A stretch of 64,000 bases of DNA, taken from positions 128,001 to 192,000 of the forward strand of contig JAYFMW010000020.1 in NCBI GenBank assembly GCA_042408215.1, written 5' to 3'. Shown here piece by piece: positions 14,288 to 17,471 of the stretch. The number at the start of each line of letters is the position of its first letter. Position 1 is the stretch's first letter. This DNA is from Microcoleus sp. GTDB lineage: Bacteria > Cyanobacteriota > Cyanobacteriia > Cyanobacteriales > Microcoleaceae. Made by a program: the position numbers and the translations under genes. Below the pieces are notes generated by a model. That model saw only the letters and a program-made list of their open reading frames with translations, was not told where the DNA came from and ran no database searches.

Positions 14288-15004
14288 ATGAAATCCACTA
14301 ATATCAACCCAACAACTAACAAATTACCGATTTCTGAGCCGGTAATTTCTCTGCACAAACTCGACCACTACTTCGGTCAAGGTCAACTGCGAAAACAGGT
14401 ACTTTCTGACATAAACATAGAAATTAATGCAGGTGAGATTGTGCTGATGACCGGGCCTTCTGGTTCAGGAAAAACAACGCTTTTGACTTTGATTGGCGGA
14501 CTGCGATCGGGTCAATCTGGAAGTCTCAAAATTCTTGGTCAAGAGATGTGTCATGCGAGTTCAGATAAATTGGTAAAGACGCGGCGCAACATTGGCTATA
14601 TTTTTCAGGCGCACAACTTGCACCGCAGTTTAACAGCACTACAAAACGTGCAAATGGGTTTGGAAGTTCACGGCAATTTGTCGCGTTCCGAAATGGGCGA
14701 TCGCTCTGCAAAAATGCTAGAATTAGTAGGACTGGAAGAGCGGATTAACTATTATCCAGATGACTTGTCAGGGGGACAGAAACAAAGAGTTGCGATCGCC
14801 CGCGCTTTGGTTAGTCATCCGCAAATTGTTTTAGCTGACGAACCAACAGCGGCCCTGGACAGCAAATCCGGTCGCGAAGTGGTGAATTTGATGCAGAAAC
14901 TTGCCAAAGAGCAAGGTTGTACTATTCTGTTAGTAACCCACGACAATCGAATTTTGGATATTGCCGATCGCATTATTCATCTGGAAGATGGCAAATTAGC
15001 ATAA
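14288..15004 (+). CDS. devA: DevA-family ABC exporter ATP-binding protein
   Basis: Walker A GPSGSGKTT, LSGGQKQRVAIARAL, LADEPTAALDSKSG, VTHDNRILD. Confidence 0.93.
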   Translation: MKSTNINPTTNKLPISEPVISLHKLDHYFGQGQLRKQVLSDINIEINAGEIVLMTGPSGSGKTTLLTLIGGLRSGQSGSLKILGQEMCHASSDKLVKTRRNIGYIFQAHNLHRSLTALQNVQMGLEVHGNLSRSEMGDRSAKMLELVGLEERINYYPDDLSGGQKQRVAIARALVSHPQIVLADEPTAALDSKSGREVVNLMQKLAKEQGCTILLVTHDNRILDIADRIIHLEDGKLA

Positions 15005-15154
15005 ATAGTTATTTGTTAGTTGTTAGTTGTTATTTGCGGTGCCCTGAGCGTAGTCGAAGGGTTATTGGTTATTTGCGGTGCCCTGAGCGTAGTCGAAGGG
15101 CACCGCAACTAACCAATAACAACTAACCAATAACAACTAACCCATAACTCATAA
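15005..15154. repeat. Heptamer repeat tract with two embedded small dispersed repeat copies (TGCGGTGCCCTGAGCGTAGTCGAAGGG)
   Basis: TAGTTAT/TTGTTAG and AACTAAC/CAATAAC units flank a direct duplication; a related CCCTGAGCGGAGTCGAAGGG occurs at ~52223. Confidence 0.7.
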
Positions 15155-16192
15155 CTAATGGGTAACAACCAATCCTTGGCGGTAAATCCCCAAATTCTTC
15201 TGATACATTGCTTCGAGTTTGGGCATCGAGGATTCCACAGAACCGCCAAAACGCCGAAAAGAAGGCCAGATGTCAGCGAGTTTTTTCACTGCTGACGACC
15301 ATCGACCCGCTTCTATATCTCCTAAGGCACCTTGTTCTCGGATTAATTCTATAGCTACAAGGTCTTGATTTTGCGGGCTGAAATCGTTGACACCAAATTT
15401 TTGGGCGAACCTGTCCCAGGTGGTGCTGAGAAACTGATATCGCCCCGCTGCGTCGGAACAGAGTTTTTTGCCGTAGCGGCGGCCGCACTTCATTTCCCTG
15501 GGATGGTCACTGAAACTGGCAAATTTGGTGCCGGTGTACTGAGTGCGGTAGCCATCGGGTGTAGCGGTGCCTTCGGCGGCGGCGATGGTGTCGAGAAAGG
15601 CTTTGACTCGATCGCGCTCGATGTTATGCTCTCCTTTGTCTGGTGACTTCAGCGTTGGAGTTTCCGGCTGTCGATCGCCCTCAATGTTATGCTCTCCTTT
15701 GTCTGGTGCATCGATGGCTGCAACGGACGGCCGGCGTTTCGGGGCGGGCGAGCTTTCTGCCGAGACTGATTGTCCCCACAGTCTGGGGGTGATTCGACTT
15801 AAGAAAAAACAAAAACAGATGCACAAACTCCAGGAGAGTTTAAAACCGAGGCGTTTGGGGCGTTTAGTGCTCACCACCGGCCACCCGTACATGGGGATTG
15901 CTGCGGGCAAAATTCCCGTTTGCTGACCGAAGGCGAACAGCGATTTCAGCGCTAGCAAAGTTTGCTTGCAGAGACTGGGTGCAAGTTTGTGAGCTCTCAT
16001 CTGCGCGGCGAAAGTCTCGACATCTGCCAGAGTAACTTGTGCTAACGGTTTTTCTACAAACAGCAGAAACTGGTTTGCCACCAGCCTGCTAAAGCCCTGG
16101 CTGCGGGGGGCTTGGCGCTTTACCCACAGACGAATTAGCTCGATGTCGTCCATAGGGTAAAGATGGTTTTCCAGATGTTCTTGTGCGTACAA
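15155..16192 (-). CDS. Fusion protein: N-terminal tyrosine-integrase SAM-like (core-binding) domain, hydrophobic segment, C-terminal lambda-type lysozyme (GH104)
   Basis: C-term RVKAFLDTIAAAEGT...FSDHPR...SDAAGRYQFLSTTWD...DFSPQNQD is lambda R-like. N-term DIELIRLW...FLLFVEKPLAQVTLADVETFA...LAPS...LLALKSLFAFG resembles cyanobacterial integrase N-termini. AGGAGG RBS lies 5 nt before the TTG start. Confidence 0.82.
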   Translation of the reverse strand: MYAQEHLENHLYPMDDIELIRLWVKRQAPRSQGFSRLVANQFLLFVEKPLAQVTLADVETFAAQMRAHKLAPSLCKQTLLALKSLFAFGQQTGILPAAIPMYGWPVVSTKRPKRLGFKLSWSLCICFCFFLSRITPRLWGQSVSAESSPAPKRRPSVAAIDAPDKGEHNIEGDRQPETPTLKSPDKGEHNIERDRVKAFLDTIAAAEGTATPDGYRTQYTGTKFASFSDHPREMKCGRRYGKKLCSDAAGRYQFLSTTWDRFAQKFGVNDFSPQNQDLVAIELIREQGALGDIEAGRWSSAVKKLADIWPSFRRFGGSVESSMPKLEAMYQKNLGIYRQGLVVTH

Positions 16193-16553
16193 GAGTACCT
16201 CCTGATATCACTTCCGGTTGAAATTTCCCTGTTTGTGGATTTGTGATTTTTGATTGGTTCCGCAGTGGAAATTCAGGTGTTGTACGGAACCAAATTGCCA
16301 ACGGGCGATCGCAAATCTCAAATTTCTCCGTATAAACCGAGGGGTAGGGACAGGGATCAAGACAAACTTGCTTCAACCATATTCAGTGATACTACTAAGT
16401 GTTCGCGGGGTCAAGTTGATTGGCCGATTTGGCGATGGGCTGAGTCTAAAATTTGGCGATGACCGAGGCACCGCCGTCCCAATTGACATAGGTTTCAAGG
16501 TGCGGGCGGCCGACTAGCTCAAAAGCGATCGCGCATTTTTTTGCGATCTAATA

Positions 16554-17471
16554 TTAAGAACTCTTCCGCTGTTTGGGTGCGGAGGATTGCAACTGTTGCT
16601 GATGGAGGAGATTCTTTCGTTTAGCCAGCATCAGGGAACCGTAGCGGTTAGCCCAAACTTGAGTAAACTCAGCACCTAAGAACAGAATCTGAGCCGAATA
16701 ATTGATCCAAAGTAAGATAATCACGAAGGAACCAGCAGCACCGTAGGTAGAGGCGATACCGCTACCTCCGAGGTAAATTCCAATTAGGGATTTGCCGATC
16801 GTAAACAACACGGAGGTGATAGCTGCGCCGATCCAAACATCGTTCCAAGCCAGATTAACATCGGGCAATAGTTTGTAAATTAAGGCAAACAGCAGCGTGA
16901 CTACACCAAAAGAAATGGCAAAGTCTACAATCTGCCAAATGCCGACGGGTAAGTGCAGCCAGCCGTTCAACCAATAGCTAACGGCTGCTAAAAGGGCGCT
17001 AATTACCAAAGAAACTAGCAGTAAAAAGCCTATGCCTAAAATCATGGCAAAAGACAGTACCCGGTCTTGCAAAAAGCCCCAGACGCCTCGTCCGGGGGCT
17101 GGTTTAACATTCCAAATAGTATTGAGGGCTTCTTTAAGATTAGTAAAAACGTTGGAAGCGCCCCACAAAAGTGTAGCAACCCCGACTAAGGTAGCAATCA
17201 TTCCCGATTTAGGTTCGGAGGCTTTGACGATCAAGTCTTGGACTGTTTGGGCGCCATCTTTGCCGATTAAACTTTGGAGTTGGGCGACGATTTGGCCTTG
17301 GGCTGCGTCGGCACCAAAGACTAAACCGGCGATCGCAATCACGATAATTAGCAGCGGGGCGAGAGAAAATACTGTGTAATACGCCAGGGCTGCTGCTAGG
17401 GTTGGCGCTTTATCTTCTTGCCATTCACTAAAAGTTTGTTTTAATAGCGATAAGACTGTTTTTAAGTTCAC
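16554..17471 (-). CDS. YihY/virulence factor BrkB family inner-membrane protein
   Basis: AAALAYYTVFSLAPLL, ALNTIW, YGAAGSFVIILLWINYSAQILFLGAE. Confidence 0.93.
   Translation of the reverse strand: MNLKTVLSLLKQTFSEWQEDKAPTLAAALAYYTVFSLAPLLIIVIAIAGLVFGADAAQGQIVAQLQSLIGKDGAQTVQDLIVKASEPKSGMIATLVGVATLLWGASNVFTNLKEALNTIWNVKPAPGRGVWGFLQDRVLSFAMILGIGFLLLVSLVISALLAAVSYWLNGWLHLPVGIWQIVDFAISFGVVTLLFALIYKLLPDVNLAWNDVWIGAAITSVLFTIGKSLIGIYLGGSGIASTYGAAGSFVIILLWINYSAQILFLGAEFTQVWANRYGSLMLAKRKNLLHQQQLQSSAPKQRKSS

Follow-up and report, generated by a model that had tools for sequence, protein, structure and literature searches.

A predicted membrane-anchored GH104 protein of filamentous cyanobacteria that carries a recombinase-type core-binding domain

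Gene organization and genomic context

The window analysed here, a 64,000-nucleotide stretch of contig JAYFMW010000020.1 from Microcoleus sp., carries on its minus strand a gene for a protein of 345 amino acids in which a domain of the tyrosine-recombinase core-binding type is joined, through a predicted membrane helix and a poorly conserved linker, to a GH104 domain of the lambda-lysozyme type (Table 1). An original prediction made from the letters alone had described the same anatomy, and all of its elements were found at this locus. The open frame begins with a TTG codon at 16190-16192, as read from the sequence, and the strong ribosome-binding site that had been claimed corresponds to an AGGAGG 5 nt upstream of it. 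Among the Microcoleus-clade loci inspected (n=14), the TTG start is preceded by AGGAGG in 12 and by GGGAGG in 2, and a start codon and ribosome-binding site upstream of the N-terminal domain are kept across these loci. At the nine distant loci inspected, the longest open frame opens with ATG (6), GTG (2) or TTG (1).

Table 1. Features of the fusion gene and its protein, with positions in the window
Feature	Position	Strand	Basis
Whole coding sequence (345 codons and stop)	15155..16192	minus	ORF list and translation
Shine-Dalgarno AGGAGG, 5 nt upstream of the TTG start	16198..16203	minus	Read from sequence
Residues 14-100, tyrosine-recombinase core-binding (SAM-like) four-helix domain	15893..16153	minus	PF13495, structure search
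Residues 101-116, basic juxtamembrane stretch (…STKRPKRLG)	15845..15892	minus	Net charge
Residues 117-138, predicted single membrane helix, Cys-rich (LSWSLCICFCFFL)	15779..15844	minus	AlphaFold helix, Kyte-Doolittle
Residues 139-192, disordered, poorly conserved linker, predicted periplasmic	15617..15778	minus	pLDDT, identity
Two copies of a 38-nt direct repeat	15608..15708	minus	Repeat search
Residues 193-340, GH104 lambda-lysozyme-type domain, predicted periplasmic	15173..15616	minus	phmmer, PHROG, Foldseek
Codon of Glu207, counterpart of the catalytic Glu of lambda lysozyme	15572..15574	minus	AEGT aligned to SEGT
Codons of Cys236 to Cys245, Cys pair on a predicted beta-hairpin	15458..15487	minus	Alignment, predicted strands

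Contigs from the RNA libraries of three studies tile positions 15144-16402, with the N-terminal domain included, such libraries being ones that may also contain DNA. The ends of these contigs at 16363 (two studies) and 16402 give a weak hint of where the 5′ end of the gene may lie. A promoter consensus scan of 14950-16600 returned no promoter-like site on the strand of the gene, and the upstream alignment revealed a conserved block at approximately 16345-16400 to which neither a promoter nor an operator could be assigned.

The fusion gene is chromosomal and single-copy. Its neighbours encode a sulfotransferase, an ABC ATPase, BrkB/YihY, CNNM/CorC and glycosyltransferases; none is a phage gene, in agreement with the earlier statement that the locus lacks a prophage context. 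The neighbourhood differs between distant clades and therefore gives no functional hint; in two Kamptonema-type genomes (L083, L013) the fusion gene is convergent to an FtsW/RodA gene. The fusion was not found in 50,697 phage records, none of the 645 phage records with a match covers at least 80% of the query, and 0 families of the PADLOC-DB defence-system models match at E<=0.1. A prophage or defence reading was rejected on the neighbours, the phage collection and PADLOC, which favour a housekeeping gene over one of phage origin.

The GH104 domain

The C-terminal part of the protein is related to lambda lysozyme, with residues 195-334 aligning to residues 7-150 of the 1am7 chain (phmmer E 1.3e-21, approximately 35% identity), and it is matched by the PHROG endolysin family phrog_90 at E 4.2e-35. 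When the full-length AlphaFold model was submitted to Foldseek, the top matches were 1am7 (E 6.9e-5) and 3d3d (E 2.4e-4), both with a probability of 1.00 and with TM-scores, normalised to the target, of 0.68-0.69 (1am7 first, at 0.69). Per 10-residue block, the pLDDT of the domain ranges from 59 to 93. The AEGT of the window protein aligns with the SEGT motif of lambda lysozyme, the Glu of which is the catalytic residue of that enzyme, and all 19 aligned members share E207, G208 and T209. The GH104 muramidase with an AEGT Glu that had been predicted is thus borne out by homology and by conservation of the residue, and the chemistry of the domain is probably that of a lytic transglycosylase.

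Cys236 and Cys245 are likewise invariant (19/19 members) and lie on two strands predicted by AlphaFold at residues 235-239 and 242-246. Both are absent from lambda lysozyme in the alignment, and they may form a disulfide.

The N-terminal core-binding domain

The N-terminal domain, predicted to be cytoplasmic, is modelled by AlphaFold as four helices (residues 16-26, 29-46, 55-67 and 72-91/92) with a pLDDT of about 90. The Pfam family Phage_int_SAM_4 (PF13495) matches the whole window protein at E 3.5e-4 and 21.4 bits and the isolated domain at 24 bits, both under the 27-bit cut-off, and it matches 13 of 14 family members at E<=0.01, the best at 5.2e-8. A search of the modelled domain against 48,161 PDB chains returned, as its best 24 rows (Z 8.1-12.9), exclusively N-terminal domains of tyrosine recombinases or recombinase-like proteins, including 3nrw (Z 12.9, rmsd 2.1 over 96 residues) and XerD 1a0p (Z 11.8, rmsd 1.5 over 82 residues). 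The SAM-like fold that had been proposed for the N-terminus is therefore present, both by PF13495 and by structural comparison. Against PDB sequences the domain profile gave a weak best match, to XerA at E 0.0033, and for this reason the argument for the domain rests on the comparison of folds and on the recombinases among its relatives.

The family profile of the domain matches the N-terminal domains of complete cyanobacterial recombinases, down to E 4e-20, and all five of the recombinases examined behind these matches carry the catalytic domain PF00589. A word-indexed search with residues 1-112 returned 84 proteins, all from the fusion family, because distant recombinases share too few exact words with it. 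PF00589 has no match in the window protein at E<=1, just as the original prediction had noted the lack of an R-H-x-x-R-Y domain, and residue 100 is followed directly by the membrane segment, linker and GH104 domain. Since the R-H-R-Y domain is absent, the protein is not a recombinase and cannot recombine DNA.

In all 19 members the domain carries a net charge of +4 to +11, as compared with +4 to +7 in the N-terminal domains of parent-type recombinases (n=5), making the fusion domains at least as basic as their presumed donors. The lysine of a common KSL motif, Lys83, is conserved in 16 of the 19 aligned fusions as well as in all five recombinases. At the start of helix 2 the window protein reads PRSQGFSR, as opposed to PRSKRFSW or PHQRRDRR in relatives, so that Gln-Gly replaces two basic residues of most relatives. 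The genome from which the window comes holds no further member of the N-domain subfamily of the fusion, and thus no cognate recombinase or known site hints at a DNA target.

Membrane segment and linker

A basic and then hydrophobic, Cys-rich stretch (KRPKRLGFKLSWSLCICFCFFL) had been pointed out in the original prediction and is present in the translation. Over alignment columns 101-117 the window protein carries a net charge of +4, within a range of +2 to +13 for 19 members, and the net charge of the 15 residues before the hydrophobic segment is 0 to +9, being positive in 18 of 19 rows. The assignment of a membrane helix rests on a Kyte-Doolittle scan and on a helix predicted by AlphaFold. The maximum of the segment over 19 residues is only 1.42 in the window protein, which is marginal; the same segment reaches at least 1.6 in 12 of 19 aligned members, is weak throughout the Microcoleus clade (1.31-1.55) and is Gly/Ala-rich in other members. 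At least one Cys is present in the segment in 17 of 19 members. A topology with the N-terminus inside and the C-terminus outside is predicted, and it agrees with the basic flank, the predicted helix at residues 117-138 and the invariant Cys pair of the GH104 domain.

Residues 136-188 have a pLDDT below 50 in the AlphaFold model, and the mean identity of the linker to that of the window protein is 8% in 11 distant members. The duplicated PDKGEHNIE that had been noticed in the linker arises from the 38-nt direct repeat, whose copies (15608-15645 and 15671-15708) are 95% identical, are spaced 63 nt apart and yield a 21-aa duplication. A relative of 324 aa (P0003, 90% identical) has a single copy of the 21-aa unit.

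Distribution and selection

Homologs of the window protein at E<=1e-3 number 477, and among the 120 homologs listed, 112 cover at least 92% of the query. The full-length fusion is present at 80 of the 80 species-level genome loci listed, with Microcoleus, Tychonema, Kamptonema, Laspinema, Oscillatoria and Phormidium as carrier genera. Thick-walled filament formers with true multicellularity, such as Microcoleus, are among the carriers. In a sample of 401 cyanobacterial genomes, 22 have a full-length match, all from one GTDB family. The fusion is hence far from unique to one assembly, and it is not an assembly artefact, as follows from the 80 full-length loci, the 22 genomes, the preserved start codon and ribosome-binding site, and the coverage by RNA-library contigs. 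A search for short or split forms returned three proteins, one of them on a 1.2-kb contig, and two of the three diverge abruptly after approximately residue 104 in a manner that resembles a frame change; the three are read as broken or mis-assembled copies, and a natural split form was rejected. The automatic database labels are 'glycoside hydrolase family 104 protein' and, for one member, 'Core-binding (CB) domain-containing protein', and full-text literature searching found no paper on an architecture of core-binding domain, membrane segment and GH104 domain.

Over 71 sequences, dN/dS was estimated at 0.28 for the core-binding domain, 0.31 for the juxtamembrane and membrane segment, 0.44 for the linker and 0.14 for the GH104 domain. 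Judged by these substitution ratios, each part of the fusion is under purifying selection, including the core-binding domain.

These values bear on the possibility that the protein is a membrane-bound regulator of the ToxR/CadC kind, in which the GH104 domain would sense peptidoglycan or muropeptides while the core-binding domain binds an operator and controls transcription. The layout is indeed that of single-pass one-component regulators (a DNA-binding fold, one predicted helix and a periplasmic domain), recombinase-like repressors (MrpR, SroF) are found among the structure neighbours, and the TTG start may fit a protein of low abundance. The strongest constraint, though, falls on the GH104 domain, whose catalytic Glu and core are invariant, which argues for an active enzyme and not a sensor. 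The variable neighbourhood also leaves no candidate regulon evident, and neither a promoter-like site on the strand of the gene nor an operator in the conserved upstream block was recovered in the scans described above. A regulatory role is accordingly regarded as quite improbable.

Evolutionary origin

In other cyanobacterial families, the more distant relatives begin close to the hydrophobic segment, and the core-binding domain is therefore a lineage-specific addition and not part of the core of the enzyme. In a tree of GH104 domains, 12 fusion domains form one group (support 98/93) that is nested among non-fusion cyanobacterial GH104 proteins, and the closest non-fusion relatives, at 44-48% identity, consist of a basic tail of 40-70 residues, a membrane helix and the GH104 domain. 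The nearest relatives of the N-terminal domain are complete cyanobacterial recombinases. At the level of sequence comparison, the order of the domains, the homology of each part, the conservation of the fusion and its single grouping in the GH104 tree are well established. The recipient would have been a widespread cyanobacterial membrane-anchored GH104 protein with a basic tail, which appears to have acquired the core-binding domain of a cyanobacterial tyrosine recombinase, probably in a single event in the common ancestor of a set of non-heterocystous filamentous genera. The best reading of the protein is that of a membrane-anchored lytic transglycosylase that captured the DNA-binding domain of a recombinase as a cytoplasmic handle. 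It would represent a clean case of domain capture, in that both the donor (complete recombinases) and the recipient (tail, membrane helix and GH104) can still be identified in related genomes.

As the sister proteins function with a short basic tail only, the captured domain could be a passive anchor, that is, a ligand-free leftover of the fusion event that either serves as a bulky cytoplasmic plug to hold a segment resembling that of signal-anchor-release (SAR) proteins in the membrane or is removed by signal peptidase, for instance at ...SVSA\|E. The weak hydrophobicity of the segment in the Microcoleus clade and its Gly/Ala-rich composition in other members would suit such a role, as would the small residues that several members carry at -3/-1 after the segment (SVSA\|E, SQA\|E, AIA\|A). 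Some members lack the putative cleavage motif, however, and the selective constraint on the domain, together with residues that are invariant across sequences only about 40% identical, argues for a specific function. A purely passive domain is thus considered very improbable.

Possible function of the captured domain

The GH104 domain would be situated in the periplasm, with one predicted helix tethering it to the inner membrane, and may cut the glycan strands of peptidoglycan there as a lytic transglycosylase. The core-binding domain, devoid of its catalytic partner domain, would remain in the cytoplasm and likely binds DNA, and the wall-cutting enzyme may thereby be placed or restrained by where the nucleoid touches the membrane. 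The fold and topology are those of predictions, and we infer both the DNA binding by the N-terminal domain and the coupling between the two sides of the membrane. A periplasmic wall cutter positioned in this manner by a DNA-binding domain is put forward tentatively, as a serious possibility. In the original prediction the anatomy (a core-binding domain with no catalytic domain, followed by the basic and then hydrophobic stretch, the linker and a GH104 domain that retains its Glu) has stood; the accompanying idea that the position of DNA is coupled to local opening of the wall is kept here in this tentative form.

The role of the core-binding fold in recombinases is the binding of DNA, and this role, the positive charge, Lys83 and the structure neighbours weakly support a handle that binds DNA. 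Among these neighbours are DNA binders of recombinase descent, namely MrpR, SroF, Ndc10 and an ALOG domain, which do not carry out recombination or are not known to. In recombinases the core-binding domain clamps DNA jointly with the catalytic domain, and isolated core-binding domains bind DNA weakly. The high positive charge of the domain could simply reflect the positive-inside rule. Also counted against a DNA-binding handle are the Gln-Gly at helix 2, the Kyte-Doolittle value of 1.42, the lack of a cognate recombinase and the differing neighbourhoods.

In single-pass proteins of wall morphogenesis, a cytoplasmic DNA-binding fold can instead have a protein as its ligand, as in RodZ, whose helix-turn-helix domain binds MreB. 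With this precedent, the core-binding fold may have been re-used as an adaptor for a component of the elongation or division apparatus, such as MreB, FtsZ or a SEDS/PBP complex, and would target the enzyme to sites of wall synthesis. A domain that is conserved under purifying selection in a genome with no cognate recombinase or obvious DNA site would be expected of an adaptor, as would the loss from the window protein of the two basic helix 2 residues kept by most relatives, and the convergent FtsW/RodA gene of the two Kamptonema-type genomes points in the same direction. Set against this are a positive net charge kept in every one of the 19 members and the finding that most of the residues that never vary among the fusions are shared with the recombinases, a pattern that suggests maintenance of the fold and gives no sign of a new interface; in addition, the analysis yielded no partner, and none of the neighbours is shared by the distant clades. 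An adaptor function is therefore possible but rather doubtful. Returning to the DNA-binding handle, its most far-reaching form would be a physical link between nucleoid and wall, in which the enzyme senses through the captured domain whether DNA abuts the inner membrane, and in which that position licenses or blocks opening of the wall at closing septa or during programmed filament breakage at necridia; this extension is unlikely.

The spatial and temporal control of wall-cutting enzymes is a central problem for bacteria, and the known controls involve periplasmic or lipoprotein activators, or adaptors linked to the cytoskeleton. The fusion family would add another solution, namely a lytic transglycosylase with its own folded cytoplasmic handle derived from a DNA recombinase, and selection appears to have maintained the handle in a clade to which Microcoleus and Oscillatoria belong. 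For Microcoleus vaginatus, a 2026 review gives a peptidoglycan layer approximately 50 nm thick, wall pores, and sacrificial necridia at which filaments break. If the handle binds DNA, it would constitute a direct protein link between the chromosome and wall remodelling; if its ligand is a protein, the family would join RodZ as the second case in which a DNA-binding fold has been re-used for wall morphogenesis.

Comparison with known systems

Lambda lysozyme R (GH104; 1am7, 3d3d) shares with the fusion the homologous residues 195-334, the Glu of the (S/A)EGT motif and the predicted fold. R is a soluble phage endolysin of approximately 158 aa that is released through a holin, whereas the fusion is chromosomal, lies in no lysis cassette, and has 192 extra N-terminal residues and an invariant Cys pair. 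The closest non-fusion relatives, cyanobacterial GH104 proteins without the N-terminal domain (L009, L010, L094-L096), also run from a basic cytoplasmic stretch through one hydrophobic helix and a linker to a GH104 domain, in which the Cys pair is likewise present, but have a low-complexity basic tail of 40-70 residues in place of the folded core-binding domain. Literature searching found no characterisation of these membrane-anchored proteins.

With recombinases of the XerC, XerD and phage-integrase type, especially cyanobacterial ones of approximately 290-305 aa (L004-L008), the fusion has in common the four-helix N-terminal domain (27-33% identity) and the W, F, KPL-x-x-VT, D and KSL motifs, but it entirely lacks their catalytic domain (PF00589, R-H-R-Y). 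The fold has been re-used outside recombination in the ALOG domain, the Ndc10 domain and MrpR/SroF, which are structure neighbours of the N-terminal domain (Z 6.0-10.6); none of these is membrane-tethered or fused to a wall hydrolase.

SAR endolysins (P1 Lyz, phage 21 R) have a muramidase-type domain on a weakly hydrophobic tether. The tether of the fusion is similar in being weakly hydrophobic and rich in Gly, Ala, Ser or Cys, and the likeness to P1 Lyz extends to a Cys in the tether segment together with a Cys pair in the enzyme. The anchor of SAR endolysins, in contrast, lies at the extreme N-terminus and leaves the membrane, and their enzyme is of the T4-lysozyme type and not GH104. Because 116 residues including a folded domain precede the segment of the fusion, its release from the membrane should be prevented. 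Identity as an SAR endolysin was rejected on the grounds that the hydrophobic segment starts at residue 117, after a folded domain, that there are no phage neighbours, and that none of the 645 matching phage records covers at least 80% of the protein.

ToxR and CadC, which bind DNA, and RodZ, which binds MreB, resemble the fusion in having a cytoplasmic fold of the DNA-binding type (predicted in the fusion), one helix and a periplasmic domain. Their cytoplasmic fold is a winged helix or helix-turn-helix, whereas that of the fusion is a recombinase core-binding domain; no winged-helix family matches the window protein in Pfam at E<=1, and the OmpR-type DNA-binding domain is absent. The fusion further differs from all three in that its periplasmic part is an enzyme with an intact active site.

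The fusion gene and its start

The fusion gene is present as a single copy in its own 7.36-Mb genome (see table of coordinates); the fusion is unusual and the anatomy of its product is solid. The strong ribosome-binding site of the original prediction is there, and in the 14 Microcoleus-clade loci inspected the TTG start is preceded by AGGAGG (12 loci) or GGGAGG (2 loci); the translation start upstream of the N-terminal domain is thus conserved within this clade. The longest open frame in nine more distant loci inspected begins with ATG (six), GTG (two) or TTG (one).

Coordinates of the fusion gene and associated features in the window
Feature	Window position	Strand	Remarks
Fusion coding sequence	15155..16192	-	345 codons, TTG start
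Ribosome-binding site AGGAGG	16198-16203	-	5 nt 5' of TTG start
Membrane segment, residues 117-138	15779-15844		contains a Cys in 17/19 members
Cys236 and Cys245	15458-15487		invariant pair
Gap between ABC-ATPase and fusion genes	15005-15160		filled by long imperfect palindrome
Palindrome arms	15008-15045 and 15097-15134		38 nt, 89% complementary
GT4 glycosyltransferase gene remnant	~16396-16500		~100 nt of 3' end

The N-terminal core-binding domain

The Pfam model Phage_int_SAM_4 scores 21.4 bits against the window protein, short of the curated 27-bit threshold, and matches 13 of 14 family N-terminal domains at E ≤ 0.01 (best 5.2e-8). Modelled alone, the domain folds into four predicted helices (pLDDT 81, pTM 0.73). 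A structure search of 48,161 representative PDB chains places the N-terminal domain of a tyrosine recombinase or recombinase-like protein in every one of the 24 top rows (Z 8.1-12.9). Among them are 3nrw (Z 12.9, with an rmsd of 2.1 for 96 residues), XerD (1a0p; Z 11.8, with an rmsd of 1.5 for 82 residues) and XerA (Z 11.6); the entries below these, with Z < 7, are unrelated helical proteins. Helical bundles may score high Z by chance, and the assignment is kept despite this because a single family tops the list, clear of the rest, and the sequence evidence concurs.

Across an even sample of 401 cyanobacterial genomes, the family profile matches at least 22 places in its N-terminal part only (profile positions ~5-150, E down to 4e-20), within open frames of 261-370 amino acids. 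All five that were examined are complete recombinases with PF00589 and SAM-like domains; they are colinear with the fusion's N-terminal domain at 27-33% identity and have the W, F, KPL..VT, D and KSL motifs in common with it. By homology and predicted fold, this part of the fusion is a tyrosine-recombinase core-binding domain. The catalytic domain PF00589 has no match in the fusion at E ≤ 1, and the protein therefore cannot be a recombinase. The suggested resemblance to a recombinase DNA-binding domain devoid of its catalytic partner is upheld, the SAM-like fold being found both by the structure search and by Phage_int_SAM_4. No second member of the N-domain subfamily is found in its own genome at E ≤ 0.01, and the domain therefore has no cognate recombinase to act alongside.

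Membrane segment and linker

The basic stretch (KRPKR…) and subsequent hydrophobic, Cys-rich segment that had been read from the sequence are both present, and AlphaFold predicts a helix at residues 117-138. The Kyte-Doolittle maximum over 19 residues is 1.42 in the window protein, 1.31-1.55 in close relatives and at least 1.6 in 12 of the 19 aligned members. Net charge over the 15 residues preceding the segment ranges from 0 to +9 and is above zero in 18 of the 19 rows; this flank fits a predicted N-in, C-out orientation. The following linker of ~50 residues is predicted to be disordered (pLDDT < 50) and is hardly conserved. Its duplicated motif, also noticed earlier, corresponds to a 38-nt direct repeat (95% identical, 63 nt apart); a 324-residue relative, 90% identical, has a single copy, and linker length thus varies by a 21-codon unit.

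The GH104 domain

Similarity to phage lambda lysozyme (PDB 1am7, E 1.3e-21) extends over residues 195-334, with the AEGT motif of the fusion aligned to SEGT of the phage enzyme. The C-terminal half matches the PHROG endolysin family phrog_90 (E 4.2e-35) and has no significant match in Pfam. The best PDB matches found by Foldseek for an AlphaFold model built from a 19-sequence alignment are 1am7 and 3d3d (probability 1.00, target-normalised TM-score 0.68-0.69). None of the 19 aligned members varies at Glu207, Gly208 or Thr209, and the same holds for many GH104 core residues and for Cys236 and Cys245. Homology, motif and predicted fold all place the enzyme domain in GH104, in agreement with the original prediction of a GH104 muramidase retaining the AEGT glutamate.

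The two invariant cysteines, which have no counterparts in the aligned lambda lysozyme, lie on a predicted beta-hairpin and may form a disulfide, which would imply an oxidising, periplasmic location for the GH104 domain. A further Cys within the membrane segment is found in most members (see table).

Distribution, selection and expression

A search of 5.8 billion proteins returned 477 relatives at E ≤ 1e-3; 112 of those 120 that were listed span 92% or more of the query, with identities from 99% down to 39%. Contigs representing one genome per species contain 208 stretches that encode a relative, and all 80 loci kept are full-length (Microcoleus, Tychonema, Kamptonema, Lyngbya, Phormidium, Oscillatoria, Laspinema and unnamed assemblies). 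In the 401-genome sample, full-length matches occur in 22 genomes: its own, all 19 others of the genus, and two more genera. These carriers belong to one GTDB family, four other sampled genomes of which lack the fusion. The architecture is therefore not peculiar to one assembly; just three short forms were found, and these look truncated or frame-shifted.

Nei-Gojobori dN/dS was calculated for 71 sequences of at least 60% identity, as a ratio of sums over non-independent pairs. The GH104 domain has the lowest value (0.14), followed by the core-binding domain (0.28), the juxtamembrane and membrane segment (0.31) and the linker (0.44). Window positions 15144-16402, and hence the whole reading frame including the N-terminal domain, are tiled by contigs from three studies' RNA libraries, which may contain DNA; one contig of 662 nt bridges the GH104 region and the end of the N-terminal domain.

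Genomic context

Neighbours in the window include genes for a DUF4347 giant protein, a sulfotransferase, a CNNM/CorC transporter and large glycosyltransferases, with an ABC ATPase gene convergent to the fusion gene and a BrkB/YihY gene upstream on the same strand; none is a phage gene. Among 50,697 phage records, 645 match the GH104 part, none covers at least 80%, and the full architecture occurs in none, consistent with the absence of prophage context originally proposed. PADLOC defence models do not match the fusion.

Within 6 kb of the fusion gene, BrkB is found in 66 and the ABC ATPase in 51 of the 80 related loci, which are mostly close kin; neighbours differ at distant Laspinema, Oscillatoria and Phormidium loci. 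An intact GT4 glycosyltransferase gene (421-430 codons) lies between BrkB and the fusion gene in 43/80 loci, 100-200 nt upstream on the same strand. In the window and, for example, in related locus L047, only its decayed last part remains, ending at the former stop codon; a conserved block comes next, 5' of the fusion gene.

Two loci carry unexpected taxon labels. L086, from a record titled Actinomycetota MAG, has BrkB, GT4 and a full-length fusion (42% identical). L077, from a record titled Richelia sp., has CorC, a 422-residue open frame occupying the position of GT4 at other loci, and a full-length fusion (64% identical); no BrkB homolog was found at this locus. Both share their upstream gene order with Microcoleus-type loci, and the labels are probably binning or naming errors. 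In two Kamptonema-type genomes, L013 (sampled genome G212) and L083 (Kamptonema), a gene of the FtsW/RodA family is convergent with the fusion gene, ~100-240 nt downstream of it; this arrangement was seen in that one clade only.

The palindrome 3' of the fusion gene consists of 7-nt GTTAGTT/AACTAAC-type repeats around two 39-nt direct core copies. At ≤ 2 mismatches, the genome has 14 occurrences of the 26-nt core, against none for a reversed control, and in RNA-library contigs the element coincides with spikes in depth and skips of 78-143 nt. It is probably a small dispersed repeat that also serves as a bidirectional terminator hairpin.

Origin of the fusion

In other cyanobacteria the GH104 domain is preceded by N-terminal parts of different kinds: some proteins start like a signal peptide, some have several membrane helices, and some carry a basic tail of 40-70 residues plus one strongly hydrophobic helix. 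The closest non-fusion relatives are of this last type, with 44-48% identity in the GH104 domain and the same Cys pair. In a maximum likelihood tree of 36 GH104 domains (midpoint-rooted for drawing only), a single group with support 98/93 unites the 12 fusion proteins and lies within the cyanobacterial proteins that lack the fusion. Together, these relationships fit a single capture of a recombinase N-terminal domain by a membrane-anchored GH104 enzyme.

The same genome also carries two tandem copies of a second, distant GH104 gene type (C6:916964-921405; L002, L003), 28% identical to the fusion gene, with several predicted membrane helices and a 'GGDPY' motif ahead of the domain, in open frames of 290-428 amino acids. 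This type is found in most cyanobacterial genomes sampled, as frames of 220-440 amino acids.

Proposed function

Domain order, homologies, conservation and selection are established by the analysis; fold and topology are predictions. From these we infer that the fusion would act as a single-pass inner-membrane lytic transglycosylase whose active GH104 domain is tethered by a flexible linker in the periplasm, that it would belong to a widespread cyanobacterial type of housekeeping enzyme that remodels the wall, and that its cytoplasmic core-binding domain may bind DNA. Taken jointly, this statement is tentative, the balance lying slightly against every part of it holding at once.

DNA binding is the known function of the core-binding fold. 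The N-terminal domain is at least as basic as its parental recombinase domains (net charge +4 to +11 in all 19 members versus +4 to +7), Lys83 of the shared 'KSL' motif is retained in 16 of 19 aligned fusions and in 5/5 recombinases, and the structure neighbours include recombinase-derived plain DNA binders (MrpR, SroF, Ndc10, ALOG); each of these points to DNA binding. Against it, a core-binding domain on its own is without the catalytic half that completes the DNA clamp, and the window protein is missing two basic residues kept by most relatives. Such folds can also bind protein instead, as in RodZ, and by this analogy the domain might be a protein adaptor, a reading that we regard as rather unlikely. 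That it is a passive plug or a cleaved leader seems improbable. Functional coupling across the two sides of the membrane, by which DNA position had been proposed to direct wall opening, is hypothetical.

Comparison with known systems

Full-text literature searches (listings and abstracts) found no paper on this architecture. Automatic database names call members GH104/GH24 proteins and, in one case, 'Core-binding (CB) domain-containing protein'. The core-binding domain is shared with tyrosine recombinases, whereas their defining catalytic domain is missing. The P1 SAR endolysin has a three-cysteine disulfide switch, which the membrane-segment Cys and enzyme-domain Cys pair may recall; identity with SAR endolysins was rejected, as the anchor is not N-terminal and phage context is absent. 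A ToxR-like regulator or sensor is improbable; membership of the ToxR-type class itself was rejected on the different DNA-binding fold. The enzyme class and the membrane-anchored layout are already known; what is new, and unprecedented, is a conserved cytoplasmic module on a GH104 enzyme.
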